The notes under the pieces: generated by a model
What the model was told of the DNA's origin: nothing
Seen by the model: only the letters and a program-made list of their open reading frames with translations
Database searches by the model: none
Program-made: the position numbers and the translations under genes
Shown here: piece by piece, positions 24,810-52,871 of the stretch
Position numbering within the stretch: position 1 is the stretch's first letter
Layout of the letters: each line of letters opens with the position of its first letter
NCBI GenBank assembly: GCA_001189195.1
Contig: LFCQ01000006.1
Coordinates: 56,841-120,840, forward strand
Reading direction: 5' to 3'
Source of the DNA: Parcubacteria bacterium C7867-007
Lineage (GTDB): Bacteria > Patescibacteriota > Minisyncoccia > Phycocordibacterales > Phycocordibacteraceae
DNA length: 64,000 nucleotides

Positions 24810-24823
24810 ACTATACTGTTTCT

Positions 24824-25390: not shown

Positions 25391-25572
25391 ACTCTCTACC
25401 TTCGATCCGTTCTTCAGCATGTATCTACGTACACCCGCGCGTCATACCACTACACGCCACACATCACAGTTTGCATCCTTCACAGAACGGGAACGGCGAT
25501 ACCTCTCTCCTAAACGTATGATCCCACTATCTCTGCGTTCTGAACGTGTGTCCGCACGTCAATCAGTGGTTC

Positions 25573-26886: not shown

Positions 26887-26890
26887 TGCG

Positions 26891-30007: not shown

Positions 30008-30016
30008 GACGTGTGG

Positions 30017-31567
30017 CTAGAGAGTTGCTTCAGGAGCTACCTGTACTTTTTGTCCTTCTGCGAGTCCACGTGCATCGGTAACAATACGCATGTCAGTGGT
30101 GATACCACTCAGGATCTCAATACGATCACCACGCACGTCACCGATTTGCACCTGGTGCGCAACCAGACGACTTTCTTCACCAACCGTGAACACAATGCGT
30201 TGCTTTGCACTCAATTTCACACTTGCAAGCGGAAGGAGGATTGGACCAGCAACTACCGGTTCTGAAGGTGCTGCGGCAATAGCATCAGGGAAACTGATAC
30301 GTACGGACTGTCCGTTCACCACGTCTACCGCATCATCTGAAACCGCAACATGCACCTCAATCTGTTTGGTAACAGGGTCAAGAGCAGGAGCGATGGTGGT
30401 AATCACACCATCATACGTATCCTCTACACGAACCTTCATACCTGCAGAAATGTTTTCACGATCGCTTTCTGATACATAGGTAACAATCTCCAAGGTTCCG
30501 TTGTTTGCCACTGTCGCTACGTGCTGGAGCGTAGTTACGTAATCACCCACATGGATAGGGAGGAAGTTAACGGTTCCGCCAATCGGTGCACGTACATACG
30601 TCTTCTCAAGATTTGCCTGTGCAAGACGAAGTGTTCCAAGGGCAGACTTTACTCCTGCATCAACACTTGCTGTTGAGGTCGTGCGCTTTGCACGGTATGC
30701 CTCACGAGCACTTGCCACTGCAGCAATCAACGTATCAAGACTAGTGCGTGCTGAAGTGAGTGCTGCAATCTGGGCTGTCGTCTCACCCGAACCCTCACGA
30801 TTTGCCGCCTCAGAAATATCATTAAGGAGAGCGTCAATAGTATCTAGATCTGCCTGTGCTTCAGAGAGGAGGGTGTCTGGACTACGTGATTCAAGAGTTG
30901 AGAGTTGAGCACGACGAGCATCGAATGTATCTTCAATCCCATCACGTCGTCGGGACATCTGATCAAGAGGGACACGGCTTTCATTCAACAGGAAGCGAGG
31001 GCCGATTGGTGTGTTATCTCCATAGAATGCATCGAGATCAGTATGAAGGAGGCTATCTAGTGATGAATATACGGAGCGATAGGTATTGCGTACGGTTGCG
31101 GTTGCATCCGTAGGTGATACTGCGTTGCGTGAAGCAAGAGCAGATTCATATGCCCCCTGTGCTTGGAGTACCTGAGCACGCTCAGTTGCATTATCAAGTT
31201 CTGCAATCACCGTTCCTGCAGCAACAACGCTGCCAATCTTTGCACGAAGCGCACGTACCGTTCCTCCTGCCTGTGCAAGGAGATCTGCCTGAGTTACTGA
31301 GCGTACAGTACCTATGATACTTACCGAATCTCCTGTTCCACTAAGGCTCGCAACAGACTCCACTGTTACTGTCCGAAGCTGGTTCTCCTGAGTTGTTTTG
31401 TTTCCTGAGCGCGCAAGTGCAATGGCACCGAAAAGCAACGCAATGATCAGGGCTACTATTACAATCTGTTGCCAGCGCTTACGACCCTTAAACCAGGACC
31501 ATCCAGCAGCGACGCGAGTGCGCAGGCCTTTCATTGTTCGCTTTACCCACGTACTAAAAGGTTTCAT
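30017..31567 (-). CDS. RND/HlyD-type periplasmic adaptor (membrane fusion protein)
   Basis: N-terminal TM, long coiled-coil, beta-barrel/lipoyl segments; operon with RND pump. Confidence 0.75.
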   Translation of the reverse strand: MKPFSTWVKRTMKGLRTRVAAGWSWFKGRKRWQQIVIVALIIALLFGAIALARSGNKTTQENQLRTVTVESVASLSGTGDSVSIIGTVRSVTQADLLAQAGGTVRALRAKIGSVVAAGTVIAELDNATERAQVLQAQGAYESALASRNAVSPTDATATVRNTYRSVYSSLDSLLHTDLDAFYGDNTPIGPRFLLNESRVPLDQMSRRRDGIEDTFDARRAQLSTLESRSPDTLLSEAQADLDTIDALLNDISEAANREGSGETTAQIAALTSARTSLDTLIAAVASAREAYRAKRTTSTASVDAGVKSALGTLRLAQANLEKTYVRAPIGGTVNFLPIHVGDYVTTLQHVATVANNGTLEIVTYVSESDRENISAGMKVRVEDTYDGVITTIAPALDPVTKQIEVHVAVSDDAVDVVNGQSVRISFPDAIAAAPSEPVVAGPILLPLASVKLSAKQRIVFTVGEESRLVAHQVQIGDVRGDRIEILSGITTDMRIVTDARGLAEGQKVQVAPEATL

Positions 31568-38398: not shown

Positions 38399-39709
38399 AT
38401 GACCACAGTATATATGCGGCGCAATGACGGCCGCCGTAACCCGTTCGACCGCGATGCGAGTCGTTCATCGGGCCGTCCTAATCGTTCAAGTTCTTCAAAC
38501 CGCTCTTCAGGCGGCCGCCCTTCACGTGGCGGTGATCGTTTCTCTTCAAACCGTTCATCAGGTAGTCGTCCTTCTCGTGGAGGTCGTAACTTCCAGGAAA
38601 TGGCGGTTGACCTTTCGAAGCTTATTAACAAGGCAGTAGAGGGATTTGTTGCAGAGGTATACGTACCAAAGCACCAGTTCATCGATTTCCCAGTGGATGA
38701 GAAGCTTAAGGCAAACATTATTTCTAAGGGCTATGTCACCCCAACTCCTATTCAGGATCAGTCGATCCCGGTAGTACTTGAAGGGAAGGATGTGGTTGGT
38801 ATAGCTAACACCGGTACAGGAAAGACCGCATCATTCCTCATCCCTCTTATCGACAAGGTACTCAAGATGCGTGCTGCTGGTATCGAAGAGCGTGTACTCA
38901 TCATGGTTCCAACCCGTGAGCTCGCTATTCAGATTGAGCAGGAATTCTATGGATTCGCTCGTCAGCTCGGTATTAACTCCGTAGTAGTAGTGGGTGGTGC
39001 AGGCATGGAGCCACAGGTTCGTGGCCTACGTCGCAAGCCAAACTTCGTGATCGGTACTCCCGGTCGTCTTAAGGATCTTATGGAGCGCCGTGAACTGGAT
39101 CTTTCGAAGTTCCAGACCGTGGTTCTCGATGAAGCAGACCGCATGCTCGACATGGGGTTCATCCAGGACATGCGTCACATCATGAGTTTCATGATGGATG
39201 ATCGTCACACCCTCTTCTTCTCTGCAACGCTTTCACGCGACATTGAGAAGCTGATCGGTGAATTCCTTCATGACCCCGTGCGTGTTTCGGTTAAGACCCG
39301 TGACACTGCCGCTACCGTTGATCAGGACGTGATTCGCGTTCCTTCAAGCGAGAAGCTCAACACCCTTATCGACATGCTCAAGCAGCCTGAATACGATAAG
39401 GTACTTGTTTTCGGGCGTACGAAGCATGGTGTTGAACGTCTTGCTCGTGACCTTAACCAGGCAGGTATCAAGGCCGACTCTATTCACGGAGACAAGACCC
39501 ATGGCAAGCGCCAGAAGGCCCTTGGACTCTTCAAGCAGAGTCACGTAACGGTACTTGTCGCTACTGACGTTGCTGCTCGCGGCCTCGACATTAGTGGTGT
39601 ATCGCACGTGATCAACTATGATCTTCCTGCGACGTATGAGGACTACACTCACCGCATTGGCCGTACAGGCCGTGCAGGAAAGACAGGAAAGGCACTTACG
39701 TTCATTTAA
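38399..39709 (+). CDS. DEAD-box ATP-dependent RNA helicase with N-terminal Arg/Ser/Gly-rich low-complexity extension
   Basis: Q motif, GTGKTA, DEAD, SAT, HRIGRTGR; N-terminal about 65 aa RSSGRPNRSSSSNRSSGGRPSRGG. Confidence 0.85.
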   Translation: MTTVYMRRNDGRRNPFDRDASRSSGRPNRSSSSNRSSGGRPSRGGDRFSSNRSSGSRPSRGGRNFQEMAVDLSKLINKAVEGFVAEVYVPKHQFIDFPVDEKLKANIISKGYVTPTPIQDQSIPVVLEGKDVVGIANTGTGKTASFLIPLIDKVLKMRAAGIEERVLIMVPTRELAIQIEQEFYGFARQLGINSVVVVGGAGMEPQVRGLRRKPNFVIGTPGRLKDLMERRELDLSKFQTVVLDEADRMLDMGFIQDMRHIMSFMMDDRHTLFFSATLSRDIEKLIGEFLHDPVRVSVKTRDTAATVDQDVIRVPSSEKLNTLIDMLKQPEYDKVLVFGRTKHGVERLARDLNQAGIKADSIHGDKTHGKRQKALGLFKQSHVTVLVATDVAARGLDISGVSHVINYDLPATYEDYTHRIGRTGRAGKTGKALTFI

Positions 39710-39714
39710 TTGAA

Positions 39715-39745
39715 CGAGTAATACAAAAGGGCCGGCTGTGAAGCC
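39715..39745. terminator. bidirectional terminator AAAAGGGCCGGCTGTGAAGCCGGCCCTTTG
   Basis: GC-rich perfect hairpin. Confidence 0.7.
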
Positions 39746-39768
39746 GGCCCTTTGCCGTATACGGTGAA

Positions 39769-40095
39769 CTACGCTGCGGCAGCCATCGGTTCTGCCAACT
39801 GTTGCTTGATGAACGCGATGATTTCTCCACGGATGAAAGACTTTGGCATGTCGTCACCCGCGACCCATCGAGCGAATAGTTCAGGGGTGAGTCCCCACCG
39901 ATCAAGAAAGCGGTTGGTGGTCATGCCGCAGAACAACGCGAATCGGAGGATCAGGCTGAACGTAGCGCGATCGATCTGCCCGGGATCAATTTCCGACCTC
40001 TCGAGCAGACCTCTGTAGAAGTGAATGGACTGCGTTGCGATCGCCTCAAGTCCCTTGGCGAACGTTGCGGTATTCAGACGTTCAGATTCAGACAT
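39769..40095 (-). CDS. hypothetical protein (108 aa), GC-rich, AAGGAG SD
   Basis: start MSESERLN preceded by AAAGGAG 7 nt upstream. Confidence 0.5.
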   Translation of the reverse strand: MSESERLNTATFAKGLEAIATQSIHFYRGLLERSEIDPGQIDRATFSLILRFALFCGMTTNRFLDRWGLTPELFARWVAGDDMPKSFIRGEIIAFIKQQLAEPMAAAA

Positions 40096-41392: not shown

Positions 41393-42109
41393 ATGGAAAA
41401 CACAAAAAGCGCATTTATGGACCGATACCTTACTCCGTTAGCAGTATTGCTTGCGGCAGTAATTATCGCTCTTGCAATGATTTATGGTCAGGGTCTTGGT
41501 TCAGGCAACAAAGGGGCTGATGGTAAGGCTGCAGTAGCAGTAGACATCAAAGATGTTAAGACGGACAACAGTCCGTATATTGGAGACAAGAATGCACCTA
41601 CCACCGTTGCAGTCTTCTATGATTACCAGTGCCCATTCTGCAAGCAGTTTGAGGAGGCAGTAACTCCTAAACTCATCGATGCGTATGTGAAGGAAGGAAA
41701 GACAAAGATTGTCTTCAAGGACTTCCAGTTCCTCGGTGAGGACTCAACCACTGCAGCACTATTCGGTCGTGCCCTTTGGGAGGCACATCCTGATAAGTTC
41801 CATGACTGGTTCGTTGCAATGGCTGGTGCTCAAGATGATGAAGGTGATCAGGGCTTCGGAGATCTTGCATCTATCCAGAAACTATCGGCAGGTATTCCTG
41901 GGATCGATGTTGCAAAGGTAACCAAGCTCATGACTGATAAGAAGGCTGACTACATGAAGGCAATTGAAGCTGATCGTGCAGAAGGTGCCGCTCTCGGTAT
42001 CAACGGTACACCAAGCGTTATTGCAGGTACTAAGCTCTTCTCAGGCATGTCTCCTGATGCATTCTTCACTGGAATCTCGGCACAGCTTGATGCACAGCTG
42101 AAGAAGTAA
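41393..42109 (+). CDS. DsbA-like thiol:disulfide oxidoreductase, membrane-anchored
   Basis: thioredoxin CPFC active site in FYDYQCPFCKQF; N-terminal TM. Confidence 0.75.
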   Translation: MENTKSAFMDRYLTPLAVLLAAVIIALAMIYGQGLGSGNKGADGKAAVAVDIKDVKTDNSPYIGDKNAPTTVAVFYDYQCPFCKQFEEAVTPKLIDAYVKEGKTKIVFKDFQFLGEDSTTAALFGRALWEAHPDKFHDWFVAMAGAQDDEGDQGFGDLASIQKLSAGIPGIDVAKVTKLMTDKKADYMKAIEADRAEGAALGINGTPSVIAGTKLFSGMSPDAFFTGISAQLDAQLKK

Positions 42110-42183
42110 TTGACATGTCATAGCAATTTGCTACGATTGTCTATGACAGTTACCCTCTGGTGAAAACCAAACGAGAGTGGAAG

Positions 42184-42220
42184 AAAAACACCGACCCATA
42201 AAGTCGGTGTTTTTCTTTTT
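42184..42220 (+). terminator. intrinsic terminator AAAAACACCGACCCATAAAGTCGGTGTTTTTCTTTTT
   Basis: perfect hairpin and T tract. Confidence 0.75.
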
Positions 42221-42241
42221 CAGTTGTATTTGATTTTCTTC

Positions 42242-42277
42242 TTACGCCCTCCATATCACTATTTTTCTATAGTAATC
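42242..42277 (+). promoter_or_regulatory. conserved upstream motif TTACGCCCTCCATATCAC-N8-TATAGTAAT
   Basis: near-identical to 21638-21670. Confidence 0.45.
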
Positions 42278-42281
42278 CTGC

Positions 42282-42349
42282 GCCGGTGGTTTCGGTGACG
42301 AGAGGGTAATTGTCACTCCACTCTTGAGGGTTCAACTCCCTCCACCGGC
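42282..42349 (+). other. 68-nt tRNA-derived palindromic element, copy 2 (GCCGGTGG...GAGGG-TTCAACT-CCCTC-CACCGGC)
   Basis: same ends and length as 2119-2186; internal GTGAC/GTCAC hairpin; sits immediately upstream of a TATATACT box and ATG at 42370. Confidence 0.5.
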
Positions 42350-42369
42350 TAAGGATATATACTGAATAC

Positions 42370-42870
42370 ATGAAAATAGTCACGGCACATGATCCCATGC
42401 AGCCGGGATACTGCTATGAATTAACGGCACCAGAAGGGGAAGGCTTTGATTCAGAGTTCAAACCAGATCTCACACCCAAAGATATGTTTGAACGCGGCGT
42501 CTTTGGAGGAAACTATTTTGAAGGACATCTCGACGAGTTCCCCAAAGATTGGCTAAAGAACGCAAAGATCTCTACGGTACACGACAAGAGCTTGAACTAC
42601 TTTGGTATCGACGCATCACAACCTTATGAAGTCTGGAAGGCAAAAGGATGGATATACAAAGATGATCCACGGGGGTGGTTCCAGTGGTATTGCCGATACT
42701 ATAGGGGGCGACGTATCCCCGAAGAAGATGCACGCCAAATAAAGCGCTGGAAGCAAATGGTTCGCCATGTTGCTCAGGTACGGTATGGATGCCGCAAAGG
42801 TGATTTCACCTGCCGAACACGCCAGCGACAAGCTCTGTTACACTGGGCATACGATAGCGCAGCACTCTAA
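42370..42870 (+). CDS. hypothetical protein (166 aa)
   Basis: ORF; TATATACT 6 nt upstream of ATG. Confidence 0.45.
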   Translation: MKIVTAHDPMQPGYCYELTAPEGEGFDSEFKPDLTPKDMFERGVFGGNYFEGHLDEFPKDWLKNAKISTVHDKSLNYFGIDASQPYEVWKAKGWIYKDDPRGWFQWYCRYYRGRRIPEEDARQIKRWKQMVRHVAQVRYGCRKGDFTCRTRQRQALLHWAYDSAAL

Positions 42871-42880
42871 TTATCTACCC

Positions 42881-43117
42881 ATGAATATCCCCACACCTGG
42901 TATCTACTATCACTTCAAACACCCAGAACAACACTACCAAGTCCTTGGAGTTGCATTTCATACCGAAACTGAAGAAGACATGGTGGTGTATAAGGCTCTG
43001 TATGGAGAAGAAAAACTCTATGTACGTCCACTAGCTATGTTTTTGGAGTATGTTGAAAAACCAGAATTTGGCTATAGTGGCCCGCGCTTTGTACGTATTG
43101 AGGCCACTCATGGTTGA
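42881..43117 (+). CDS. DUF1653 domain protein
   Basis: GIYYHFKHPEQHYQVLGVAFHTETEEDMVVYKALYGE pattern. Confidence 0.55.
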   Translation: MNIPTPGIYYHFKHPEQHYQVLGVAFHTETEEDMVVYKALYGEEKLYVRPLAMFLEYVEKPEFGYSGPRFVRIEATHG

Positions 43118-43541
43118 AGAAGAACGATTCAAAGTACTTGTTGCTGAGGCATGGGAGCATGTTCCTGAACACTGGCGTGCTCAAGTACAAAACGTTGCAC
43201 TGTTGGTTGAAGATGAGCCAAGTGATGATGTGCGTGCAGAGGAAGGACTTGGGCCAGAGGATACTCTTCTTGGGTTATATCATGGTGTACCAAATACCGA
43301 ACGAGGTGAAGGGTATGGAGTGGGATCTGTACTTCCAGATACCATCACGTTGTACCGCATACCAATTCTTGAAGAAGCACGGCATCACCTAGGAGAATCA
43401 GATTCTCCCGAAGTATTTGAAATGATTGTACGCACTGTTATACAGGAAACTTTATGGCACGAGATAGGCCACTACTTTGGTCTTTCAGAAGGAGCGATAG
43501 ATGAACGAGAACAAGAAGGGACAAATTGGTTCGAACCTTAG
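43110..43541 (+). CDS. zincin-like metallopeptidase family protein (HExxH)
   Basis: TLWHEIGHYFGLSEG motif. Confidence 0.5.
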   Translation: MVEEERFKVLVAEAWEHVPEHWRAQVQNVALLVEDEPSDDVRAEEGLGPEDTLLGLYHGVPNTERGEGYGVGSVLPDTITLYRIPILEEARHHLGESDSPEVFEMIVRTVIQETLWHEIGHYFGLSEGAIDEREQEGTNWFEP

Positions 43542-43599
43542 TGTCTAAATATAAAGCACGTGTTACACGCTTTGAAGCATCAAGTAGTGCGCTGTAATA

Positions 43600-44079
43600 C
43601 TATTGCTCCACATTAGAAAATACTTCGTTTGATCCATAGGCTTCACTAAAATCACCAAAACGAACCCATGTTGGGACAAGCTTAAATAATAGTGGCATCG
43701 CTGAATCCATGTGTGTTATTGGAGCGGATGGTTCTCCCTTAGGGAAGAGTCGCGCAGTGAGATCGGAGAGGACGGGACCAAAGGTGGCGGTGTCGGTAAT
43801 TTCTTCAAACACACCCTCTATCTGCAGTGTCTGGTTTCCCTCCAAATCAGTTACTACAAACGCTGCATGAGGATTTGAGTGGATATCATTCACTTTGCGT
43901 GTGTTCGCCAGCGTCAAGAAATATACGGACAGTGCATCATCGCATGCGTAATATAGCGTGCGTACGCGTGGAGTTCCTTCTACAGAGACTGTTGCAAGAG
44001 AGCCATGAGAGTGTGCTTTAAGAAAGGCGACGGCGTCAGATTTTTGCATTTTGGATGTTTCCATTGCATAAGTATACAC
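43600..44079 (-). CDS. pyridoxamine 5'-phosphate oxidase-like FMN-binding protein
   Basis: split-barrel pattern LATVSVEGTPRVRTLYY...AAFVVTD. Confidence 0.6.
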   Translation of the reverse strand: MYTYAMETSKMQKSDAVAFLKAHSHGSLATVSVEGTPRVRTLYYACDDALSVYFLTLANTRKVNDIHSNPHAAFVVTDLEGNQTLQIEGVFEEITDTATFGPVLSDLTARLFPKGEPSAPITHMDSAMPLLFKLVPTWVRFGDFSEAYGSNEVFSNVEQ

Positions 44080-44114
44080 CCTGCAAGAGCGAAGGATAAT
44101 GCTACCATTTCTTC

Positions 44115-44708
44115 ATGTTCGACCTTAAGATTCTACTAGTCATAATAGCCTCTATCCTAGCGGTCATTGGTAACGCCTCTTATCTTAAAGATGCGATTAC
44201 GGGCAAGGTGAAGCCTCACCCCTACACCTGGTTCATATGGTCCATTGTGTCGATGACTACATTCTTTGGTGGACTCTCTAAGGGTTCTGGGATTGGAGCA
44301 ATACCCACAGGAATAGCTGAGGTATTCACCATCATTATTTTTCTTCTATCGCTCAAATACTTTTTTAAGGATCGTACTCTACATATACGACCAATTGATA
44401 ATTACTTCCTCGCCGCAGCGTTGCTAGGACTTATTCCTTGGGTGCTCACTAAGGACCCGACTATTTCTGTGGTTATAGTGGTCGCAATCGATATTGTGGC
44501 CTTCCTCCCGACGCTTCGAAAGACATGGATGCATCCTGAAACAGAGAAGCCACTTCTCTACGGTATGAACGTTGGACGCCATGTGCTCACGCTACTGTCT
44601 CTGGGTTCATATAATATCGCCACAACCATACACTCAATTGCGATGATTATTACAAATACGCTAATGGTACTTTTTATACAAAAGAAAGGTCATCGCTCGA
44701 AGCTATAG
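44115..44708 (+). CDS. hypothetical polytopic membrane protein
   Basis: about 6 predicted TM segments. Confidence 0.4.
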   Translation: MFDLKILLVIIASILAVIGNASYLKDAITGKVKPHPYTWFIWSIVSMTTFFGGLSKGSGIGAIPTGIAEVFTIIIFLLSLKYFFKDRTLHIRPIDNYFLAAALLGLIPWVLTKDPTISVVIVVAIDIVAFLPTLRKTWMHPETEKPLLYGMNVGRHVLTLLSLGSYNIATTIHSIAMIITNTLMVLFIQKKGHRSKL

Positions 44709-44718
44709 AGAGACTTAG

Positions 44719-45555
44719 TTAGTCCTGAACTAGAACCGGTGTGCCCAAAGGAGTCCATTCATACAGCGCCTTGGCAACATCGGGAGGAAGGTTCACACAT
44801 CCGTGAGACCGCTGCTTGCCGAACATATCATGCCAGTATGTGCCGTGTATGGCACCACCTTCTTCAGTAAAATAGAGATTCCATGGCACCCCAGGAAGAT
44901 CGTAGTACTGATCCGATATGCTTGGAAGCGGCCCTTGCATGTAACGACTGGGTGTCTTTCGGTACACTATGAAATTTCCTCGGGGAGTTGGAGTAAGATC
45001 AAGTCCTGTCGACACCTGTGTATCAAGAAAAAGTTCATCGCCGTCATAGGCATAGAGCATTTGTTCAGAACGGTCGATACGAATACGCTTTGTCGTTGCA
45101 GGAACCACATCATCGGATAGTTCTTGAGCCTGCTCACTCAGGAATGAGTTCGTACCATCGGTGGCCACATACCAGTCGCGTTGCATTCGTTCTGGGTACC
45201 GTAGCCATTCACTGAAGACGACCTTGTTCCATTCTCGCCCGGTACTATCGATTGTCGTGGTAGCAGCAACGGCGAGCACTACACCGGATCGGAGCTTTTC
45301 GAGTACAGGAGCCGTTGTTGTGGGGGCTGCCCGAACGTTCACACACCCTCCTTGGAAATACGCATCGCAACCGGCAGTCACCTCAACGTATCGAACGGTT
45401 GAGGTGGATATCTCTTCGCTCACAAAAGCATTGTTGAACTCTTCCAGTACATCTGACTCTTCTGAAGCTTCTTGTAGTGCGGAGTATCCAATAGCGATTG
45501 CAAAGGCGAGCAGAATAAAAATCACCCAGCGGACTGTTAGGGAAAAGGCACTCAT
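44719..45555 (-). CDS. L,D-transpeptidase (YkuD domain), membrane-anchored
   Basis: catalytic HGT...SHGCVNL motif at C-terminus. Confidence 0.75.
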   Translation of the reverse strand: MSAFSLTVRWVIFILLAFAIAIGYSALQEASEESDVLEEFNNAFVSEEISTSTVRYVEVTAGCDAYFQGGCVNVRAAPTTTAPVLEKLRSGVVLAVAATTTIDSTGREWNKVVFSEWLRYPERMQRDWYVATDGTNSFLSEQAQELSDDVVPATTKRIRIDRSEQMLYAYDGDELFLDTQVSTGLDLTPTPRGNFIVYRKTPSRYMQGPLPSISDQYYDLPGVPWNLYFTEEGGAIHGTYWHDMFGKQRSHGCVNLPPDVAKALYEWTPLGTPVLVQD

Positions 45556-45637
45556 ACCTAGACTATACTCTGCGGCCCCGTTTTTGCGATATACTCTATA
45601 CAACCAGATCTCTGGCAAGTAAAGAACCACAGAAACT

Positions 45638-46117
45638 ATGGACAATGATACAAAACTAACGCGCTCCTTCACGGGATACGTCGCCACGCTTTTATTCTTC
45701 GGTGTCGGGGCAATAACCACTATTGGTATGGAGTGGTATGACGGCCTGGTGCTGCCTGCGTGGACGCCACCAGAGCTACTGGTCGCATTAATTTGGTTCG
45801 TGCTCTTTGTTCTCACGGCATGTTCTGTGGCAGTGTTTTGGGAGAGATCTAAACGAAACGAGCGATCGTTCGCCTCAATTCTCGTGCTCTACATGGAGAA
45901 CGCCATGCTGGTTCTTCTCTGGAACTACGTCTTCTTTGGCCTCCACAATCTAAGTATTGCTTTCGGTGTAGCAATTCTTATTGGTGCCCTTGTAGTTATA
46001 ATTATGGCAAAGGTGTGGAATGAGGTTCGTCTTGCGGCCTTGCTACTCATTCCATACTTGCTATGGATGCTGGTGGCACTTGCACTCACGTACCAGATCA
46101 TGCTCCTAAATCCCTAG
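45638..46117 (+). CDS. tspO: TspO/MBR family tryptophan-rich sensory protein
   Basis: 5 TM segments, PAWTPPELLVALIWFVLFVL. Confidence 0.7.
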   Translation: MDNDTKLTRSFTGYVATLLFFGVGAITTIGMEWYDGLVLPAWTPPELLVALIWFVLFVLTACSVAVFWERSKRNERSFASILVLYMENAMLVLLWNYVFFGLHNLSIAFGVAILIGALVVIIMAKVWNEVRLAALLLIPYLLWMLVALALTYQIMLLNP

Positions 46118-46265
46118 TTCAGCTTATATAAAAGGATCGGGGACAAATATGTAAGGGGTTGTTGTATACCAGGAAATATCATCAGATCGCGCCCAAATAG
46201 CCTGTCTAGGTGATACTTGTATTTTTATCATTTAGTGATATAATCAACATCACTAACATATTCTC

Positions 46266-46754
46266 ATGCCTGACTACAAGAACAACAGCCGTTTTAAGAA
46301 ACCCTTTACCAGTGGTGGTCCGAGTCGTGGACCTGCCCGTTTTGGTCGCCCAAACACCGATGGACCTCGTGAAATGCACACTGCAGAATGCAGTAAGTGC
46401 CACAAGTCCTGCCAGGTACCGTTCCGTCCAAACGGAACAAAGCCGGTATTCTGTGGAGACTGCTTCACCCGTGATGGTGATTCTCGCGACTCTCGCGATA
46501 CCCGCGGCTCATACCAGAAAAAGGAATATGGTGCTCCTCGCACAGCAGCTCCCACTGAGGATCGTCGTATAGACGAGCTCAAGCGCCAGCTTATTCAGAT
46601 GGACAGCAAGCTTGATCGTCTCGTACAGATGATTGATGCAGCAAACCGTGCACCTGCAACAAAGACAAAGACTGCTGCTCCTGCTGAAGCACCTGCAAAG
46701 GCAAAGAAAGTAGCAGTGAAGAAAGTTGTTGCTAAGAAAGCAAAGAAAGCCTAA
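46266..46754 (+). CDS. CxxC...CxxC zinc-ribbon protein with RG-rich N-terminus and Lys/Ala-rich C-terminal tail
   Basis: CSKCHKSCQVPFRPNGTKPVFCGDCF; tail KAKKVAVKKVVAKKAKKA. Confidence 0.55.
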   Translation: MPDYKNNSRFKKPFTSGGPSRGPARFGRPNTDGPREMHTAECSKCHKSCQVPFRPNGTKPVFCGDCFTRDGDSRDSRDTRGSYQKKEYGAPRTAAPTEDRRIDELKRQLIQMDSKLDRLVQMIDAANRAPATKTKTAAPAEAPAKAKKVAVKKVVAKKAKKA

Positions 46755-46772
46755 CGGTACCTTTGACGTAAC

Positions 46773-46804
46773 GAAGCCCAGACGATGTCTGGGCTTTTGC
46801 GTTT
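46773..46804 (+). terminator. intrinsic terminator GAAGCCCAGACGATGTCTGGGCTTTTGCGTTT
   Basis: hairpin and T tract. Confidence 0.7.
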
Positions 46805-47105
46805 AACGGATGATGTTGGTGGCACGGGGTAGGGTAAGTGGATCAGACGAACCCGGGATAGTGCCAGAGATAGAACCTGCGGAGCCAGCTAGTTGTGAAC
46901 CGACAGTCGCAGAGATTTCAGCAGCGTTCAAGAATGCGATAATCGTACTTTGAAGCTGGAGAAATATAGTAGGAACGAGAAGCTGAAGAATAAGGATGAG
47001 AATACCGAGTCCTAATGCGCGAAAGATAGGCATAAGGGTGGTAGTTATTTGATAAACGTGGACTCTAACAGAGCACACACGTGAGACGATGCGGGTCTCA
47101 ATCAA
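46803..47105 (-). CDS. small hydrophobic protein (possible pilin-like/membrane protein)
   Basis: ORF with two hydrophobic segments; weak support. Confidence 0.25.
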   Translation of the reverse strand: MIETRIVSRVCSVRVHVYQITTTLMPIFRALGLGILILILQLLVPTIFLQLQSTIIAFLNAAEISATVGSQLAGSAGSISGTIPGSSDPLTLPRATNIIR

Positions 47106-47156
47106 ATCCTTCCTAAGCTCCTTCCATCTCCTATAACCACATCCCCTAAATCCAGG

Positions 47157-47699
47157 TTACACAACCTTCTCTTTGAGAAGTTGTGCATACTTCTCCTGCA
47201 CCTTCTGGAGCTTTGGCGCAATGATGACTTGGCAGTATCCCTGCATCTTATTCTGTGCGTAATAGTCTTTGTGGTATTCCTCAGCAGGGTAGAAGGTGGC
47301 CCCTTCTTCAATCGTGGTGACGATAGGATCACCCTCACTAGATGAATCACTCAGCTCTTTGATAAAGGCTACTGTCTCCTCCTTCTGTTCTGGAGTGGTG
47401 GGGAACACCACGGAACGATACTGCGTCCCAACATCGTTACCCTGACGATTTAATTGAGTTGCATCATGAGAACCGAAGAAGACGGTAAGGAGATCACGAT
47501 AGGCAACTTGTGAAGGATCAAACTCAATCTTAATCACTTCTGCGTGACCAGTATCTCCACCGCACACCTGCTGGTACGTAGGGTTAGCTGATTTCCCACC
47601 GGCATACCCCGGCTCAACGCCAGATACCCCTTTAAGCATTTTAAATACTGCTTCAGTGCACCAGAAGCACCCACCTCCAAATATTGCTGTTTCTGTCAT
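47157..47699 (-). CDS. msrA: peptide methionine sulfoxide reductase MsrA
   Basis: GGGCFWC active site. Confidence 0.9.
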   Translation of the reverse strand: MTETAIFGGGCFWCTEAVFKMLKGVSGVEPGYAGGKSANPTYQQVCGGDTGHAEVIKIEFDPSQVAYRDLLTVFFGSHDATQLNRQGNDVGTQYRSVVFPTTPEQKEETVAFIKELSDSSSEGDPIVTTIEEGATFYPAEEYHKDYYAQNKMQGYCQVIIAPKLQKVQEKYAQLLKEKVV

Positions 47700-47881
47700 A
47701 TGAGTAAGTATATCAAGTATCTATTTTTGACGTAATTCCAAATATAATCCCAAATATGTTATGAACAGGTATTTCTCGCTACTGTGTCCACCGCAGGCAT
47801 ATACTCCGAGCAGGTGCATCGAACTTTGATACAAAAGCACCTTGCGAATCATCGCATCATCAGTTAATCAAGGGGTCGATC

Positions 47882-48409
47882 ATGGGTTGGACAGACGAAC
47901 GTATTGAACTGCTCAAGAATCTCTGGAGAGATGGTCTCTCCGCCTCGCAGATCGCCAAGCAGTTGGGTGGTGTCACCCGCAACGCTGTGATCGGCAAGGT
48001 TCATCGCCTTGGACTATCTGGGCGTGCGACACCCTCGAAGCCGCAACGCACCTTCTTCAAGGCGCCGCGGCCTGCGAGACCGGTCACGGCAGCTCCGTCA
48101 GCACCGCGTCGGATATATGAGTCGGTTGAAGTGCCGACTCCCGCAAAGAAGTGCGGCACGGTGGTCGCACCCACACCCGTTCACTACGTGGACGAGTCGC
48201 CTGGAACGGCGACGATCACCACCCTCGGCAACCACATGTGCAAGTGGCCGATCGGTGACCCGTCACGCGAGAACTTCACGTTCTGTGGCAACAGAGCAGA
48301 GAACGGCCCGTACTGCTACAGACATGACGCTTTGGCGCATCAACCAGCCCAGGCCAAGAAGAAGTCTGCTGCGGCTGAACTTGCTCGCTCACTTCGCCGC
48401 TACATCTAG
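47882..48409 (+). CDS. gcrA: GcrA-like cell-cycle regulator family protein (about 60% GC insert)
   Basis: MGWTDERIELLKNLWRDGLSASQIAKQLGGVTRNAVIGKVHRLGL N-terminal DNA-binding domain and C-terminal CKWPIGDP...FCG...YC; AAGGGG SD. Confidence 0.75.
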   Translation: MGWTDERIELLKNLWRDGLSASQIAKQLGGVTRNAVIGKVHRLGLSGRATPSKPQRTFFKAPRPARPVTAAPSAPRRIYESVEVPTPAKKCGTVVAPTPVHYVDESPGTATITTLGNHMCKWPIGDPSRENFTFCGNRAENGPYCYRHDALAHQPAQAKKKSAAAELARSLRRYI

Positions 48410-48433
48410 AATCTATCCCTCGGGATATCAAAC

Positions 48434-48458
48434 GGGCCCCTCCAGAACAGAGGGGCCC
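48434..48458 (+). terminator. GC-rich hairpin GGGCCCCTCCAGAACAGAGGGGCCC after gcrA-like gene
   Basis: perfect stem; weak T tract. Confidence 0.5.
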
Positions 48459-48472
48459 GTGATCTATTTTCC

Positions 48473-48859
48473 TTATTGTTTCTCGAACTCTAAACAGACT
48501 GAGTTAATACAGTATCTCTTTCCACCTTTGTCCTCAGGGCCGTCATCAAATACATGACCAAGGTGACTATTGCAGTGCTTGCAGAATACTTCAGTACGGC
48601 GCATGCCATGCGCGTCATCTGAACGGGTACCTACATTTTCAGCTACAGCAGGATCTGTAAACGAAGGCCAACCACTCTTGGAATCAAACTTTGCATCCGA
48701 AGAGAAGAGCTCATTGCCGCAAACCTTGCAGCGATACATCCCGTGGTCGTGGTTATCAACGTAGGCACCTTTCCAAGGAGCTTCAGTACCGCCTTCGCGG
48801 AGAACAGCATATTCTTCAGGGGTCAATTTGGCACGAATTTCGTCTTCATTTATATCCAT
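48473..48859 (-). CDS. msrB: peptide methionine sulfoxide reductase MsrB
   Basis: CxxC...CxxC zinc site and RTEVFCKHCNSHLGHVFDDGP. Confidence 0.9.
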   Translation of the reverse strand: MDINEDEIRAKLTPEEYAVLREGGTEAPWKGAYVDNHDHGMYRCKVCGNELFSSDAKFDSKSGWPSFTDPAVAENVGTRSDDAHGMRRTEVFCKHCNSHLGHVFDDGPEDKGGKRYCINSVCLEFEKQ

Positions 48860-48917
48860 ATATGAGAATTATACCCCTATGACAAAGCGTTGCCGATAGG
48901 CTAGGATTAAGAGACGT

Positions 48918-49400
48918 ATGACCCGAACAGCCCTGCTGTCACTCCTTCTCGTGCTTACCTTCCTAGGCCTTGCAGATTCTTGGTATCTTGCCCAAACCGC
49001 ACTAGATGGCGCCTCTCTTGCCTGCAGCATTGATGGTCTTGAAAGCTTAAATGGTTGTAACCAGGTCGCACAGAGTGCGTATTCCAAGGTTATGGGAGTA
49101 CCGCTTGCACTATACGGTGTCTTCTTTTACGGGGTGCTGTTTGTTATCGCATCAGTACTCTTTGCTATGCCCTGGCGTGTACTCTACCGAGCATCAATTG
49201 TACTTGGAGTGATTGGTATGCTTCTTTCACTGTATTTCGTCTTCCTGCAGTTCTTCGTTATTAAAGCACTCTGCATATACTGCATGGCATCCATGGTCAT
49301 CTCCATTTTGATTTTCTTTGTCACACTACGACTGTGGAACCAATTCGCGGTTGTGCGTGTAGTGGAGCCCGTTACACCGGTGATACCACTTGTTTCCTAA
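48918..49400 (+). CDS. vitamin K epoxide reductase (VKOR) family protein
   Basis: 4-5 TM, CxxC redox motif CIYC and loop Cys pair. Confidence 0.7.
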   Translation: MTRTALLSLLLVLTFLGLADSWYLAQTALDGASLACSIDGLESLNGCNQVAQSAYSKVMGVPLALYGVFFYGVLFVIASVLFAMPWRVLYRASIVLGVIGMLLSLYFVFLQFFVIKALCIYCMASMVISILIFFVTLRLWNQFAVVRVVEPVTPVIPLVS

Positions 49401-49406
49401 CGTTTC

Positions 49407-50573
49407 ATGCCTATGCCACGCATCATCTCACTCGCACTTCTCACCCTGATGCTTCCGATACTCGCGCACGCAGCAACGTTTGCTGAAGATAAGACATTGG
49501 TCCTCTCAGATGCGCCTCCTGATAACACGTATCTTGCGGGCGTAACGGTAACGGTGAGTGCACCATTGCCTGCAGATCTTGCTGCAACCGGGGGTACCGT
49601 AACAACCTATTCTCCTATTACGGGTGATGCCCTTATCGCTGCAGGCACCATTCACATGCAAGAGCGAGTGGAGGGGGACGTGCGTGCAATGGGACTTCGT
49701 GTGTTGATTGATGGTGCTGTTAGAGGCGACGTAGTGGCAGCAGGCGCAACGGTTAAGGTTACTGCACCAGCACGTGATGTTCGTCTTTTTGGACTACAGG
49801 TACTTGCTACCGGAGGAGCAGAAGGACCGGTAACGATATACGGCACCGATGTAACGCTGGCTGGTGAGTATGCGGGTGATGTTGAGATAATTGCATCAGA
49901 CCGGCTCACCATTGGTCCAGATACCCGTATTCACGGCACGCTTCGCTATAACGCACCGCAACAGGTGGAGATACCTGCATCCTCGCTGGTTGATGGAGGA
50001 ATAACCTATACCGGATCGTATGCGTATGTCCCAACGAATGAAGAGGTTAAAAAGTTTGCGATTGCCGGTGCCGGCATCTTCTTTATGGTACGTGCACTTG
50101 CGGTGATGGTTGCTGCAGGTCTACTCGCAGGATTGTTCCCAATGTTTAGCACACCACTTGCTGCACGCGTATTCACACGCCGATACTCTCGTCTTAGTCT
50201 CATAGCACTGCTTGGTTTCGGTATCCTCATTGCTGCACCTGTCCTAATTCTTCTCTTAAGTGTTTCATTTGTCGGTGCAGCCATCGCTCTGCTTCTTGGA
50301 TCTGCATATATTCTTCTGCTTATCCTTTCATATCTCTACGCAGGTATTTTGGTTGGTGGGGCAGTGAGGCACTTTGCAACTAAGCGCTCGGCAACCCTCA
50401 TCTACTGGCAAGACGCGCTTGTTGGTATGCTCCTGCTCTTCATTGCAGGAAGTATCCCCTATGTCGGCTGGATTATTACACTCCTTGCGGTGTGTATCAC
50501 TCTTGGAGCGCTTGTTTCAAATCTATACCTCTTCGCGTTCCGCCGCACCACCTCTTGGCATACTGAATTCTAA
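49407..50573 (+). CDS. bactofilin-like beta-helical repeat protein with signal peptide and C-terminal TM domain
   Basis: repeats GDVRA.GLRVLIDGAVRGDVVAAGATVKV; 4 C-terminal TM. Confidence 0.4.
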   Translation: MPMPRIISLALLTLMLPILAHAATFAEDKTLVLSDAPPDNTYLAGVTVTVSAPLPADLAATGGTVTTYSPITGDALIAAGTIHMQERVEGDVRAMGLRVLIDGAVRGDVVAAGATVKVTAPARDVRLFGLQVLATGGAEGPVTIYGTDVTLAGEYAGDVEIIASDRLTIGPDTRIHGTLRYNAPQQVEIPASSLVDGGITYTGSYAYVPTNEEVKKFAIAGAGIFFMVRALAVMVAAGLLAGLFPMFSTPLAARVFTRRYSRLSLIALLGFGILIAAPVLILLLSVSFVGAAIALLLGSAYILLLILSYLYAGILVGGAVRHFATKRSATLIYWQDALVGMLLLFIAGSIPYVGWIITLLAVCITLGALVSNLYLFAFRRTTSWHTEF

Positions 50574-50577
50574 TCCT

Positions 50578-51051
50578 ATGGCTATTCCACATGTTGGTTC
50601 TGTTGCGCCCGCCTTCACTCTTCCTGATCAGGATGGAGCTCAACATACGCTCTCAGAAGCAAAAGGGAAGTATGCGCTTGTATACTTCTATCCAAAAGAT
50701 GATACCGGTGGGTGTACCAAGGAAGCCTGTTCTCTAGGAGAGTATTTCCCTGACTTCTCAAAAAGCGGTGCGGTGATATATGGAATCTCTCCGGATAGTG
50801 TGAAGAGCCACAAGAAGTTTGCAGAGAAATACAACCTGCCATTCACTCTCCTTGCAGATCCCGAGCACCAAGCCATAAAAGCATACGATGTGTGGGGAAA
50901 GAAGAAATTCATGGGACGTGAATATGATGGGGTGTACCGTACCTCATTCCTCATTGCACCAGATGGCACTATTGCGAAGGTATACGAGAGCGTAAAACCT
51001 GAATCACATGCACAGGAAGTACTGAACGACCTGAAAGAACTTGGTGCGTAA
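50578..51051 (+). CDS. bcp: thioredoxin-dependent peroxiredoxin Bcp
   Basis: FYPKDDTGGCTKEAC peroxidatic Cys motif. Confidence 0.85.
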   Translation: MAIPHVGSVAPAFTLPDQDGAQHTLSEAKGKYALVYFYPKDDTGGCTKEACSLGEYFPDFSKSGAVIYGISPDSVKSHKKFAEKYNLPFTLLADPEHQAIKAYDVWGKKKFMGREYDGVYRTSFLIAPDGTIAKVYESVKPESHAQEVLNDLKELGA

Positions 51052-51053
51052 CT

Positions 51054-51719
51054 ATGAATAGTAAACAGGAAGAACGGAAACTACGTGCAAAGAAGATACT
51101 CACTTATCTTAAGAAAACGTATCCGGAACCAAAGACAGAACTTGCCTATAAGACACCGGTACAACTTACCGCTGCTGTCATGCTTTCTGCGCAGTCTACA
51201 GACAAACGTGTGAATCAGGTTACAGAAACTCTCTGGAAGAAGTACAAGACCGTGAACGATTTCGCTGATGCTGATCTTGCAACTTTCACAAAGGAAATCT
51301 CAAGCATCACGTTCTATCGTAATAAGGCTAAAGCAATCATTGGTATGGCACAGCGTGTACGTAGTGAATATGGAGGAACGATTCCCAAGACTGAAACAGA
51401 ACTTGTTACTCTTCCCGGTATCGCGTACAAGTCCGCTCACGTGATTATGGGTGAGCTATACAACATATACGAAGGTATCCCCACAGACACACATGTACGT
51501 CGCTTTGCCCTTCGATTTGATCTCACTGATAGCAAGGATCTCACAAAGATTTCAAAAGATCTTGAAGCGCTGATTCCAAAAGGGGACTGGAAGTATGTAA
51601 ACAACGGACTGGTGTTGTATGGTCGCTATCTCTGCAAAGCGCTTCCACACGACTGTGATGGCCATCCTCTCACCAAGATCTGGCCACCTGCAGCAGAGCG
51701 TTGGCCGAAGAGCAAATAG
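51054..51719 (+). CDS. nth: endonuclease III (HhH-GPD)
   Basis: HhH-GPD LPGIAYKSAHVIM and catalytic region; C-terminal Cys cluster. Confidence 0.8.
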   Translation: MNSKQEERKLRAKKILTYLKKTYPEPKTELAYKTPVQLTAAVMLSAQSTDKRVNQVTETLWKKYKTVNDFADADLATFTKEISSITFYRNKAKAIIGMAQRVRSEYGGTIPKTETELVTLPGIAYKSAHVIMGELYNIYEGIPTDTHVRRFALRFDLTDSKDLTKISKDLEALIPKGDWKYVNNGLVLYGRYLCKALPHDCDGHPLTKIWPPAAERWPKSK

Positions 51720-51729
51720 TTGCGTATTT

Positions 51730-52017
51730 GATATGTGGGTATATAGTGCCCCCTAGGTTCGGTTCCTTGAAGCCTGTAAGGTCAGATGAGTCCTGAGGGG
51801 ACGATTCGTAGACACACCTGTGTGTTCCTCGTTGCAGTTAACCAAATGTCAGTTTGGTCCAACGCTCTGCGGCCTAATGGTGTGCGAGTCGTCAGGATAT
51901 AGCGCAGCTTGCTGCGCACTAACGTCACCCTAGTAGTCTAGAGGGATCGAACCAACCCTTTCTGTATTTCGTAGCCGCCACTTCGCGCGTCGCCCTCCCA
52001 GCGACGCGCTCTTTTTA
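51730..52017 (+). ncRNA. candidate structured non-coding RNA of unknown class ending in a strong terminator
   Basis: about 290 nt with no ORF, multiple hairpins, GGGGACGATTCG segment, terminator CGCGCGTCGCCCTCCCAGCGACGCGC + TCTTTTT at 51984-52016. Confidence 0.35.
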
Positions 52018-52061
52018 TACCTTCCCCTTTCATATCCACAGGATAGACTGTTGATATTGCT

Positions 52062-52871
52062 ATGGATTCTAGGAAGTTCAGGAAAATCATATGGGACTTT
52101 TATAAAAAACAAGGAAGGCATGATCTTCCTTGGAGAAACACCACTGACCCCTACCGCATCCTTGTCTCAGAGGTAATGCTGCAACAAACTCAGGTTGAGC
52201 GTGTTCGCGGATATTACGCTGCATGGCTCAAAAGGTTTCCAACAGTACGTGCGCTTGCCAAAGCACCCCTCGCTGAGGTCCTCACCCTGTGGCAGGGTCT
52301 TGGATATAATCGTCGTGCAAAGATGTTGCATGATGCAGCGAAGAAGGTGGTTATTGAATACAAAGGAAAAATGCCCACTGATCCAGATACTCTTGTATCT
52401 CTGCCCGGTGTTGGGCCATACACTGCACGTGCCGTAGCGGCATTCTCAATGAATGCAGACGTAGTGTTTATTGAGACAAACCTACGAACAGTAGTACTGC
52501 ACCATTTCTTCTCAGACAAGAAGCAGGTCTCAGATGCAGAAATATTGGAAGTACTAAGCAAATCACTTCCAAAAGGAAGATCACGAGAGTGGTATGCCGC
52601 ACTTATGGACTACGGTTCCTATCTAAAGCGCAGCGGTATACGTGTGAACACAAAGAGCATGAGTTATACAAAACAGACTGCTTTCAGTGGTTCTGGAAGA
52701 CAAGCACGGGGTGCCATTCTTAAAGAACTTGCACGAAACTCAGTAACGAAGAAACGCCTCCTCGTATTACTTGGTGACGATCGTATTGAACAGATGGAAA
52801 CACAGCTCAAGAAGCTTATATTGGAAGGAATGGTTGAGAAAACAGGAACATACTATACGTTGCCGAGTTAA
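52062..52871 (+). CDS. mutY: MutY-like adenine DNA glycosylase catalytic domain (no NUDIX domain)
   Basis: LPWRNTTDPYRILVSEVMLQQTQV...LPGVGPYTARAVAAF HhH-GPD. Confidence 0.7.
   Translation: MDSRKFRKIIWDFYKKQGRHDLPWRNTTDPYRILVSEVMLQQTQVERVRGYYAAWLKRFPTVRALAKAPLAEVLTLWQGLGYNRRAKMLHDAAKKVVIEYKGKMPTDPDTLVSLPGVGPYTARAVAAFSMNADVVFIETNLRTVVLHHFFSDKKQVSDAEILEVLSKSLPKGRSREWYAALMDYGSYLKRSGIRVNTKSMSYTKQTAFSGSGRQARGAILKELARNSVTKKRLLVLLGDDRIEQMETQLKKLILEGMVEKTGTYYTLPS

Follow-up and report, generated by a model that had tools for sequence, protein, structure and literature searches.

GcrA has been treated as an alphaproteobacterial invention, with some further copies in phages, and linked to the CcrM methylation clock. 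In Alphaproteobacteria GcrA and CcrM are described as an epigenetic module (Fioravanti 2013, PMC3667746; Haakonsen 2015, PMC4647560), and structures are available for full-length GcrA in a complex with RNA polymerase (PDB 7YE1/7YE2), for its sigma70-interacting domain with domain 2 of sigma70 (5YIX) and for its DNA-binding domain (DBD) with or without DNA carrying N6-methyladenine (m6A; 5YIU/5YIV/5YIW). Here we analysed a 64,000-nt stretch (hereafter the window) of contig LFCQ01000006.1 of Parcubacteria bacterium C7867-007, a member of the candidate phyla radiation (CPR), in which a gcrA gene lies between the methionine sulfoxide reductase genes msrA and msrB. This gene is probably an orthologue-type gcrA, captured by Parcubacteria from a Phenylobacterium-like member of the Caulobacteraceae and kept as a working gene for a sigma70 cofactor. 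A search of 7.7 million PMC papers and of bioRxiv returned no paper that places GcrA in Patescibacteria, Parcubacteria or CPR bacteria, and the paper in which the genome was reported makes no mention of it (PMC4508563).

A preliminary description of this DNA had assigned the product to the GcrA family from its two termini, and this was borne out: the N- and C-terminal sequences are exactly as it quoted them, and the product matches Pfam family PF07750 (E 9.2e-53, 179.2 bits against a cut-off of 26.9) over profile positions 1-154 of 155. The Caulobacter crescentus protein of the polymerase complex (7YE1_G) aligns to residues 1-175 (E 6.8e-73), and the C. crescentus DBD and sigma-interacting domain structures (5YIU, 5YIX) match as well. 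The features of the locus, from left to right, are as follows.

47157..47699, minus strand: msrA, peptide methionine-S-sulfoxide reductase (PF01625, E 6e-62)
47707..47715, minus strand: extended -10-like box TGATATACT, read from the sequence, ending 7 nt before the msrA ATG
47798..47866, plus strand: promoter-proximal region and leader of gcrA, with a -10-like TATACT at 47800-47805, then CCGAGCAGGTG
47845..47851, minus strand: TGATTCG, a perfect match to the extended GcrA motif YGAKTCG, containing GANTC
47870..47875, plus strand: Shine-Dalgarno (SD)-like AAGGGG, 6 nt before the gcrA ATG
47882..48409, plus strand: gcrA coding sequence, 175 aa (PF07750)
48432..48460, plus strand: predicted GC-rich hairpin terminator ACGGGCCCCTC...GAGGGGCCCGT, with an 11-bp stem and a 7-nt loop, then the T-rich tail GATCTATTTT
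48473..48859, minus strand: msrB, methionine-R-sulfoxide reductase, SelR (PF01641, E 1e-50)

In the encoded protein an N-terminal DBD (residues 1-45) is joined by a linker rich in Pro and Ala to a sigma70-interacting domain with a CCCH zinc site, which is followed by a basic C-terminal tail that ends in ...AELARSLRRYI. We scored it against the functional residues of the structural study PMC5887438, in which R33, N34, I37, G38, H41 and R42 contact bases and m6A, and W3, W15, S20-S22, T32 and K39 contact the DNA backbone. All of these positions, together with M1, are retained in the window copy; in the sister genome C7867-008 and in a more distant Parcubacteria locus (L028, see below) the base and backbone contact residues are likewise all identical, and a further locus (L088) keeps the six base- and m6A-contacting residues with changes at two backbone contacts (A21G, S22D). 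The zinc ligands C118, C133, C143 and H146 have the same spacing (C-X14-C-X9-C-X2-H) in 8/8 CPR copies. As for the residues needed for sigma70 contact in two-hybrid assays in Caulobacter (W120, G129, F130, F132, Y142 and Y151; PMC5887438), W120, F130, F132 and Y142 are present across all CPR copies, and the window copy retains the further contact residues P125 and A150 as well as K119, G123, D124 and S126. Position 129 is N here and S in Phenylobacterium, so this residue varies naturally. Two further positions at the sigma interface are substituted in the window copy only (V149L and Y151H); V149 and Y151 are found in C7867-008 and the remaining CPR copies. By its sequence, then, the product is a member of the GcrA family.

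To place this protein among its relatives we searched 5.8 billion proteins and 185,579 species genomes. The nearest were GcrA proteins of Phenylobacterium (72-80 % identity), followed by those of Caulobacter (64-70 %) and of Brevundimonas and Asticcacaulis (53-63 %), and the sister copy in C7867-008 was 87 % identical to GcrA of Phenylobacterium CCH9-H3. In neighbour-joining (NJ) trees the CPR copies nest within the Caulobacteraceae, and they carry the ARSLRRYI ending that is otherwise confined to sequences of that family. The nearest gcrA copies outside the CPR lie in the Caulobacteraceae-type order ABC-2 permease, gcrA, xseA. These results uphold the horizontal acquisition proposed in the preliminary description and point to a Phenylobacterium-like Caulobacteraceae cell as the donor. 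As a separate observation among the alphaproteobacterial loci, the GcrA encoded at L122:5001-5468 (protein P0123), in the normal ABC2-gcrA context beside argF/argD, has an internal deletion that removes the end of the recognition helix (...GVTRNAVTSQPAR without IGKVHRLGLSGR) and is thus a natural DBD-defective GcrA outside the CPR.

The recipient is as foreign to this gene as had been suspected. The exact GcrA protein is deposited as Parcubacteria bacterium C7867-007. This and C7867-008 are OD1/Parcubacteria genomes (∼0.7-0.8 Mb, 48 % GC) from a well in an oxic aquifer at Hanford and belong to aerobic, cytochrome bo3-bearing organisms (PMC4508563), and hence the host is a CPR bacterium and not an alphaproteobacterium. 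The same gene order and junctions occur in a JGI and a Logan assembly, and among the window's other genes are ordinary chromosomal ones (such as RF-1 family, FtsE/X, PyrG, GroES/EL, BipA, RNase J and SecG).

In composition the gene stands apart from its surroundings. As had been reported, a gene of about 60 % GC lies on the opposite strand between the same-strand msrA and msrB; we measured 60.0 % GC (0.59/0.55/0.665 by codon position) against 48.0 % for the window, 47.7 % for msrA and 46.5 % for msrB. No other 528-nt stretch in the 64 kb is richer in GC (z = 3.9; 0.09 % of sliding windows reach its value), and the gene's GC content at third codon positions (GC3), 0.663, lies ∼6 SD above that of 18 backbone genes (0.434 +/- 0.039). 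Amino-acid composition does not account for this, as backbone codon usage for the same amino acids would give 0.434. The richness belongs to the gene rather than to the whole of 47700-48472 that had been described as GC-rich: that span includes both spacers, and the 182-nt msrA-gcrA spacer (47700-47881) is AT-rich (39.6 % GC). Two more 1-kb bins of the window have raised GC (12001-13000, 0.555; 39001-40000, 0.534; window, 0.48).

The insertion point could be defined from relatives. gcrA is divergent from msrA and convergent with msrB, and in five related loci (L087, L093, L110, L111 and L113) msrB and msrA form an uninterrupted pair with 5-35 nt between them, in agreement with the earlier suggestion that the two genes had been one operon. 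In L087, which is the closest host relative of C7867-007 and C7867-008 (100 % bootstrap), the msrB TAA is followed after 5 nt by the msrA ATG (MTEIAMFGGGCFWC); this brackets the insertion in the lineage of the two C7867 genomes. gcrA therefore splits an ancestral two-gene msrB-msrA operon of which msrA was the second gene. The msrA-proximal stretch AAGTATATCAAG is conserved in C7867-008, where the msrA orthologue is 91 % identical, and the box TGATATACT within the spacer is a putative new leaderless promoter that would allow msrA expression without read-through from msrB.

Such a locus is not confined to one genome. C7867-008 carries the orthologous msrA-gcrA-msrB locus, and probing with the neighbouring VKOR gene yielded 33 related Parcubacteria loci that share the order msrB on one strand and, divergent from it, VKOR, hyp388, (Bcp) and Nth. 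A GcrA profile located a gene directly 3' of msrB and convergent with it in eight distinct sequences, including those of C7867-007 and C7867-008; the 3' end of msrB marks the slot in all eight. The further Parcubacteria contig types with gcrA in this slot are L088, L028 (Candidatus Paceibacterota SMAG_U6922), L106/L107, L120/L121, L101 and L092. The copies of L101 and L092 are truncated by the contig ends, and the open reading frame (ORF) is intact everywhere. With the same slot occupied in six further contig types, gcrA in C7867-007 is not a one-off insertion. Identity to the window protein is 76 % for L088 and 67 % for L028 in the multiple alignment (71 % and 60 % by tblastn), and 38 % for L106/L107, to which L120/L121 is related. 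The latter two contig types encode a divergent GcrA subtype at the following positions.

L106:2334-2783, divergent GcrA subtype
L107:2152-2601, divergent GcrA subtype
L120:5001-5447, divergent GcrA subtype
L121:1103-1549, divergent GcrA subtype

The divergent subtype keeps the zinc sigma-interacting domain and an ...LTRSLRRYI or RSLRYYL tail. In L106, six of the six base- and m6A-contacting DBD residues are replaced (TRNAVIGKVHRLGL -> TVAQIYSQRKVLDL), and the DBD helix of L120 is similarly diverged (TPDQIYHKKRKLDL). As the L106 and L120 lineages are 57 % identical, this subtype is itself maintained. Maintenance is also seen between the two C7867 genomes, in which the ratio of non-synonymous to synonymous substitution rates (dN/dS) of gcrA is 0.12, compared with 0.02-0.09 for housekeeping neighbours, while synonymous divergence (dS) is saturated at 1.0-2.2 (ten syntenic genes). 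This pattern is that of a gene under purifying selection and not of a decaying passenger. The GC contrast, in turn, is a peculiarity of the C7867-007/008 lineage: only there does GC3 of gcrA reach 0.66-0.70 in a host at 0.43, whereas it is at host level in L028, L101 and L092 and slightly above it in L088 and L106.

The content of the slot from msrA to msrB varies in this group of Parcubacteria, and many relatives carry in it a PGA_cap/CapA-like gene of ∼325 aa, with or without gcrA. These genes are found at the following positions.

L088:2879-3868, PGA_cap/CapA-like gene
L090:1337-2326, PGA_cap/CapA-like gene
L096:864-1841, PGA_cap/CapA-like gene
L116:3568-4542, PGA_cap/CapA-like gene
L106:1342-2292, PGA_cap/CapA-like gene
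L028:1331-2368, PGA_cap/CapA-like gene
L120:3982-4965, PGA_cap/CapA-like gene

Additional ORFs in the slot comprise a 154-aa acidic protein in L028, a 414-aa ORF in L088 and other unrelated ORFs in L115, L118 and L119. The wider neighbourhood of gcrA (41393-52871 in the window; also L003, L028 and L088-L119) consists of conserved redox and repair genes, which specify a DsbA-like thioredoxin, a pyridoxamine-oxidase-like protein, YkuD, TspO, MsrA, MsrB, VKOR, a 388-aa polytopic membrane protein, Bcp/AhpC and two HhH-GPD (Nth-like) glycosylases. GcrA might conceivably have a part in regulating oxidative-stress genes.

The expression signals of gcrA also bear on its history. Between C7867-007 and C7867-008, 66 of 69 nt (96 %) are the same across 47798-47866, compared with 66 % in the left spacer and 71 % in the coding sequence. 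Conservation starts exactly at the TATACT box, so transcription is predicted to begin near 47812 and to give a leader of ∼70 nt that ends in AAGGGG. A 17-nt leader element, TATAsTCCGAGCAGrTG, is common to the two C7867 genomes and the deeply diverged L028, and the 12-mer TCCGAGCAGRTG occurs in 4 of 119 loci compared, always 5' of gcrA (C7867-007 in two assemblies, C7867-008 and L028). None of 80 alphaproteobacterial gcrA loci carries the element, nor does the remainder of the ∼324 kb of CPR DNA, and the 17-mer has one exact match inside the window. A donor origin of the leader was considered and set aside, as alignment of CPR with Phenylobacterium upstream regions gave no convincing homology. 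Since the leader is unlike that of Phenylobacterium and a specific element is shared with L028, the expression signals were made in the CPR and not imported. Other CPR gcrA copies are also preceded by SD-like cores (AAGGGG, AAGGAG or GGAGGAG). The preliminary description had the insert bring its own SD site and terminator; both are present, but that they came with the gene is not supported, the expression signals being CPR-made.

The predicted leader fold (-22.8 kcal/mol) is modestly better than that of shuffled sequences (z = -2.05), and an Rfam scan of the leader gave nothing relevant, its sole match being Phe_leader on the other strand (E 0.72). Within the conserved leader, ∼31-37 nt 5' of the gcrA ATG and invariant in C7867-008, lies TGATTCG, the very sequence that was co-crystallized with the GcrA DBD (motif YGAKTCG; PMC5887438). 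Its position hints at autoregulation and is offered as a lead. At the other end, the terminator occupies the 63-nt spacer between the convergent gcrA and msrB; its two arms (inverted repeat I5) are 100 % complementary, comparison with C7867-008 shows a single compensatory change (CG->UA) that preserves pairing, and other CPR gcrA loci have non-homologous GC-rich hairpins in the equivalent place.

An ORF of 43 aa (MIRKVLLYQSSMHLLGVY...LELRQK; 47721-47852, minus strand; also L003 9842-10048, minus strand) runs antisense across the leader of gcrA. In both C7867-007 and C7867-008 it is uninterrupted and has the same stop, and it is called as a gene in one assembly. As a cause of the leader's conservation it was rejected, as the leader is invariant at would-be synonymous positions and the middle of the ORF is unconserved. 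The ORF is probably not coding, and the constraint on the leader would be at the nucleotide level. A tandem 12-nt repeat (TAATTCCAAATA / TAATCCCAAATA) lies at 47733-47756 in the msrA-gcrA spacer and is partly conserved in C7867-008.

The genome appears to be largely SD-less with many leaderless genes, in keeping with the earlier description of leaderless backbone genes: a TANNNT box begins 11-17 nt before the start codon in 24 of 48 window genes (8 % at random positions), and an SD-like core is found in 9/48, which is background level (16 % at random positions). The -10 boxes of msrA and msrB are at 47707-47712 and 48868-48873, respectively. A separate part of the window (∼22765-31567) encodes a LexA-like S24 peptidase, a Y-family polymerase (IMS), an OmpR-type response regulator, RadC and a resistance-nodulation-division efflux pump (ACR_tran and periplasmic adaptor), a stress and efflux set unusually rich for a ∼0.7-Mb CPR genome.

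From these results we favour the following course of events. A single capture from the Caulobacteraceae into a Parcubacteria ancestor would have been followed by vertical inheritance, losses and lateral spread among relatives at the msrB locus, and the ancestor of C7867-007 and C7867-008 would have received the cassette comparatively late, probably from a GC-richer relative. The cassette, in which gcrA is preceded by a promoter and leader of CPR type and followed by a hairpin terminator, would have inserted between msrB and msrA, so that the operon was split and msrA was then left with its own -10 box. The most likely function of the product is that of a sigma70 cofactor on the CPR bacterium's own RNA polymerase. 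The C-terminal CCCH zinc domain would bind region 1.2/2 of the resident primary sigma factor, GcrA would travel with RNA polymerase, and the N-terminal domain would recognize GANTC-type (YGAKTCG) sites near promoters, possibly in its own leader, and bias initiation there. We infer this mode of action, both the sigma binding and the site recognition, from the conservation of the residues concerned. V149L and Y151H in the window copy count against it, as Y151A abolishes the GcrA-sigma interaction in Caulobacter two-hybrid assays (PMC5887438).

Several observations weigh against parts of this account, and they are most readily set out with the alternatives that they favour. The first concerns the number of captures. 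It is possible, if doubtful, that Caulobacteraceae donors gave rise to several independent captures, each of which landed or was retained beside msrB, with that of C7867-007/008 a separate and later one. In NJ trees (∼165 sites, 300 bootstraps) monophyly of all CPR copies was recovered in 0/300 replicates; the copies of the two C7867 genomes and L088 fall beside Phenylobacterium CCH9-H3 (and L008), and that of L028 lies apart from them within the Phenylobacterium group, in a more basal position. Non-synonymous divergence (pN) between C7867-008 and CCH9-H3 is 0.088, as small as between Phenylobacterium species (0.06-0.09), the GC3 anomaly is restricted to the C7867 pair, and the sister lineage L087 has an empty site. 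Moreover, the distribution is patchy even within the clade of L088, L096, L090 and L028: the closest relatives of the gcrA-positive L088, namely L090 and L096, are cleanly without gcrA, which requires several gains or losses under any scenario. Shared-derived residues were tried as proof of a single origin and proved too weak, V110I being the only one among the CPR copies.

Against independent captures stands the identical position in all eight sequences, at the msrB 3' end and convergent with it, which would be a remarkable coincidence, as well as the leader element that the C7867 pair shares with L028 and that is absent from every donor-type locus. The trees, furthermore, are built on few sites with large rate differences and a GC-driven amino-acid bias; L028, like the donors, is at 65 % GC, and several members of this Parcubacteria clade are at 61-65 %. 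Synonymous sites gave no signal of recent transfer, as they are saturated throughout (synonymous divergence, pS, 0.56-0.79 in all comparisons with a CPR copy; four-fold sites near random), so that no transfer is demonstrably recent. By a simple estimate, amelioration from a GC3 of ∼0.9 towards 0.43 over ∼0.6 synonymous substitutions per site per lineage would predict ∼0.6, close to the 0.66-0.70 observed. The shared slot and the shared non-coding leader element thus lead us to favour a common CPR ancestry of gcrA.

The second alternative concerns the function. It is unlikely, though it deserves serious consideration, that only the sigma70-binding half matters and that the protein is a methylation-independent sigma cofactor which does not read m6A in GANTC because no CcrM came along. 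We searched for partner genes with a motif scan and with Pfam annotation of independent assemblies (∼10-63 kb of the window), ten further ORFs from the remaining stretches (mostly the first 10 kb) and the gene at 1277-1918. As the preliminary description had noted for CcrM, neither a CcrM-type methyltransferase (PF01555/PF02086) nor a sigma70 gene was found within the 64-kb window; the motif (D/N/S)PP(Y/F/W) occurs in no window ORF of at least 100 aa, and the only two methyltransferases that Pfam identified in the window are of the class-I small-molecule type. By motif scans, rpoD and DNA amino-methyltransferase genes were absent from the window and from the ∼324 kb of CPR loci, and there was no DNA methyltransferase near any CPR gcrA locus. 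The GANTC statistics proposed in the preliminary description as a check revealed no bias in the window, with 259 sites observed and 249 expected, whereas YGAKTCG sites are slightly fewer than expected (21 against 32 +/- 5.8); as such, there is no genomic signature of a GANTC-based regulon. The sigma-interacting domain is conserved in every CPR copy, and the L106 and L120 lineages keep the gene, and its sigma-binding half, despite replaced DBD reader residues, which suggests that sigma binding is the common denominator of the CPR proteins.

On the other hand, C7867-007, C7867-008, L088 and L028 strictly keep the DNA-base and methyl-reading residues, and as they do so despite saturated synonymous divergence, DNA recognition would seem to be under selection in these lineages. 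The perfect TGATTCG in the invariant leader of the C7867 pair likewise speaks for site recognition, and the methyltransferase search covered a 64-kb window of a 702-kb genome. A sigma70 cofactor that also recognizes DNA remains the most likely function of the captured gene's product.

A phage origin, which the preliminary description had thought possible, is very improbable, be it as a prophage remnant or by phage delivery. Phages with a GcrA-like gene are known among the phiCbK-like phages of Caulobacter and among those of Synechococcus (Ssp-JY42 and Yong-M4-211), but in a tblastn search against 50,697 phage records the matches listed reached 30-34 % identity, with one unlisted further record in the 60-80 % band, compared with 72-80 % for Phenylobacterium, and the window protein has the ARSLRRYI tail. 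On the listed matches the donor was thus a Caulobacteraceae cell and not a phage of that collection. No phage, integrase or transposase genes and no flanking repeats were found around gcrA, and the insert is a single 528-nt gene with short spacers. Two candidate signs of mobility were discarded: blastn against PLSDB returned only short matches to gcrA of alphaproteobacterial chromids and plasmids, starting inside the coding sequence, and D1, a direct repeat of 25 nt with 72 % identity, was treated as chance because C7867-008 does not conserve it.

Least likely of all is that a chimeric assembly, a mis-binned alphaproteobacterial fragment or a decaying passenger underlies the locus: the GC-rich island does look foreign in a 48 % GC metagenome-assembled genome, and the window copy is substituted at two sigma-contact positions (V149L and Y151H), but the gene lies in the interior of a 170-kb contig, flanked on both sides by CPR genes 63-182 nt away, its junctions recur in both assemblies, in C7867-008 and in contigs of unrelated metagenomes, and the intact frame, the dN/dS value and the conserved leader all speak for a functional gene.

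What is new here is the phylum in which GcrA is found, its persistence there and its recurrent slot. As a protein it is an ordinary member of its family, and as this is horizontal transfer of a well-understood protein, the finding is moderately rather than fundamentally surprising. If captured as we propose, gcrA would exemplify a sigma70 cofactor that can be transplanted across phyla and is retained in a ∼0.7-Mb genome that shed most regulators. The CPR lineages also represent a natural experiment, in that the methyl-DNA reader has been retained in some and lost in others whilst the sigma-binding domain persists in all, which bears on the question of which half of GcrA is portable. Furthermore, Phenylobacterium-like Caulobacteraceae would be DNA donors to, and candidate hosts or neighbours of, an uncultivated groundwater CPR lineage. 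A bolder and rather improbable extension is that Parcubacteria that are attached to, or otherwise in close contact with, Phenylobacterium- or Caulobacter-type hosts took over the S-phase regulator of the host, possibly repeatedly, either to time their own gene expression by cues shared with the host or to interfere with the host sigma70 holoenzyme. Were this true, the shared cues might be, for example, imported host DNA or nucleotides with GANTC methylation, or a matching methylation cycle; gcrA would then indicate at the molecular level which host an uncultivated CPR lineage has, and would be the first component of the alphaproteobacterial cell-cycle module to be domesticated by an ultra-small symbiont.

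In comparison with described systems, the phage GcrA-like proteins and the window protein are alike in belonging to the same Pfam family and in lying outside an alphaproteobacterial chromosome, but the phage proteins among the listed matches have neither orthologue-level similarity to the window protein nor the ARSLRRYI tail. With the GcrA/CcrM module the window shares the reader half, with all methyl- and base-reading residues, and a consensus TGATTCG in the reader's own leader; unlike in that module, neither the 64 kb nor the CPR loci yielded a writer (a GANTC N6-adenine methyltransferase), GANTC and YGAKTCG are without enrichment, and the reader residues have been given up in the L106 and L120 lineages. 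The closest counterparts remain the GcrA proteins of Caulobacter and Phenylobacterium. The window gene differs from theirs in its host, a ∼0.7-Mb CPR bacterium rather than an alphaproteobacterium, in its neighbours (msrA/msrB instead of ABC2-gcrA-xseA), in a promoter and leader unrelated to the Caulobacteraceae donor type and at the sigma interface, where V149L and Y151H are accompanied by adjoining changes (YCYRHDALAHQP versus YCxEHARVAYQP); CcrM, CtrA and other partners of the Caulobacter cell-cycle circuit were not seen within the window. Its GC3 of 0.66 is intermediate between ∼0.9 in the donors and 0.43 in the host. In the protein itself the likeness is close: the three-part architecture and length are the same, identity is ∼70 % to C. 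crescentus and 72-80 % to Phenylobacterium, the DBD is nearly identical (MGWTDER...VTRNAVIGKVHRLGL), and the CCCH ligands, W120/F130/F132/Y142, the basic tail and the Caulobacteraceae-specific ARSLRRYI end are all shared.

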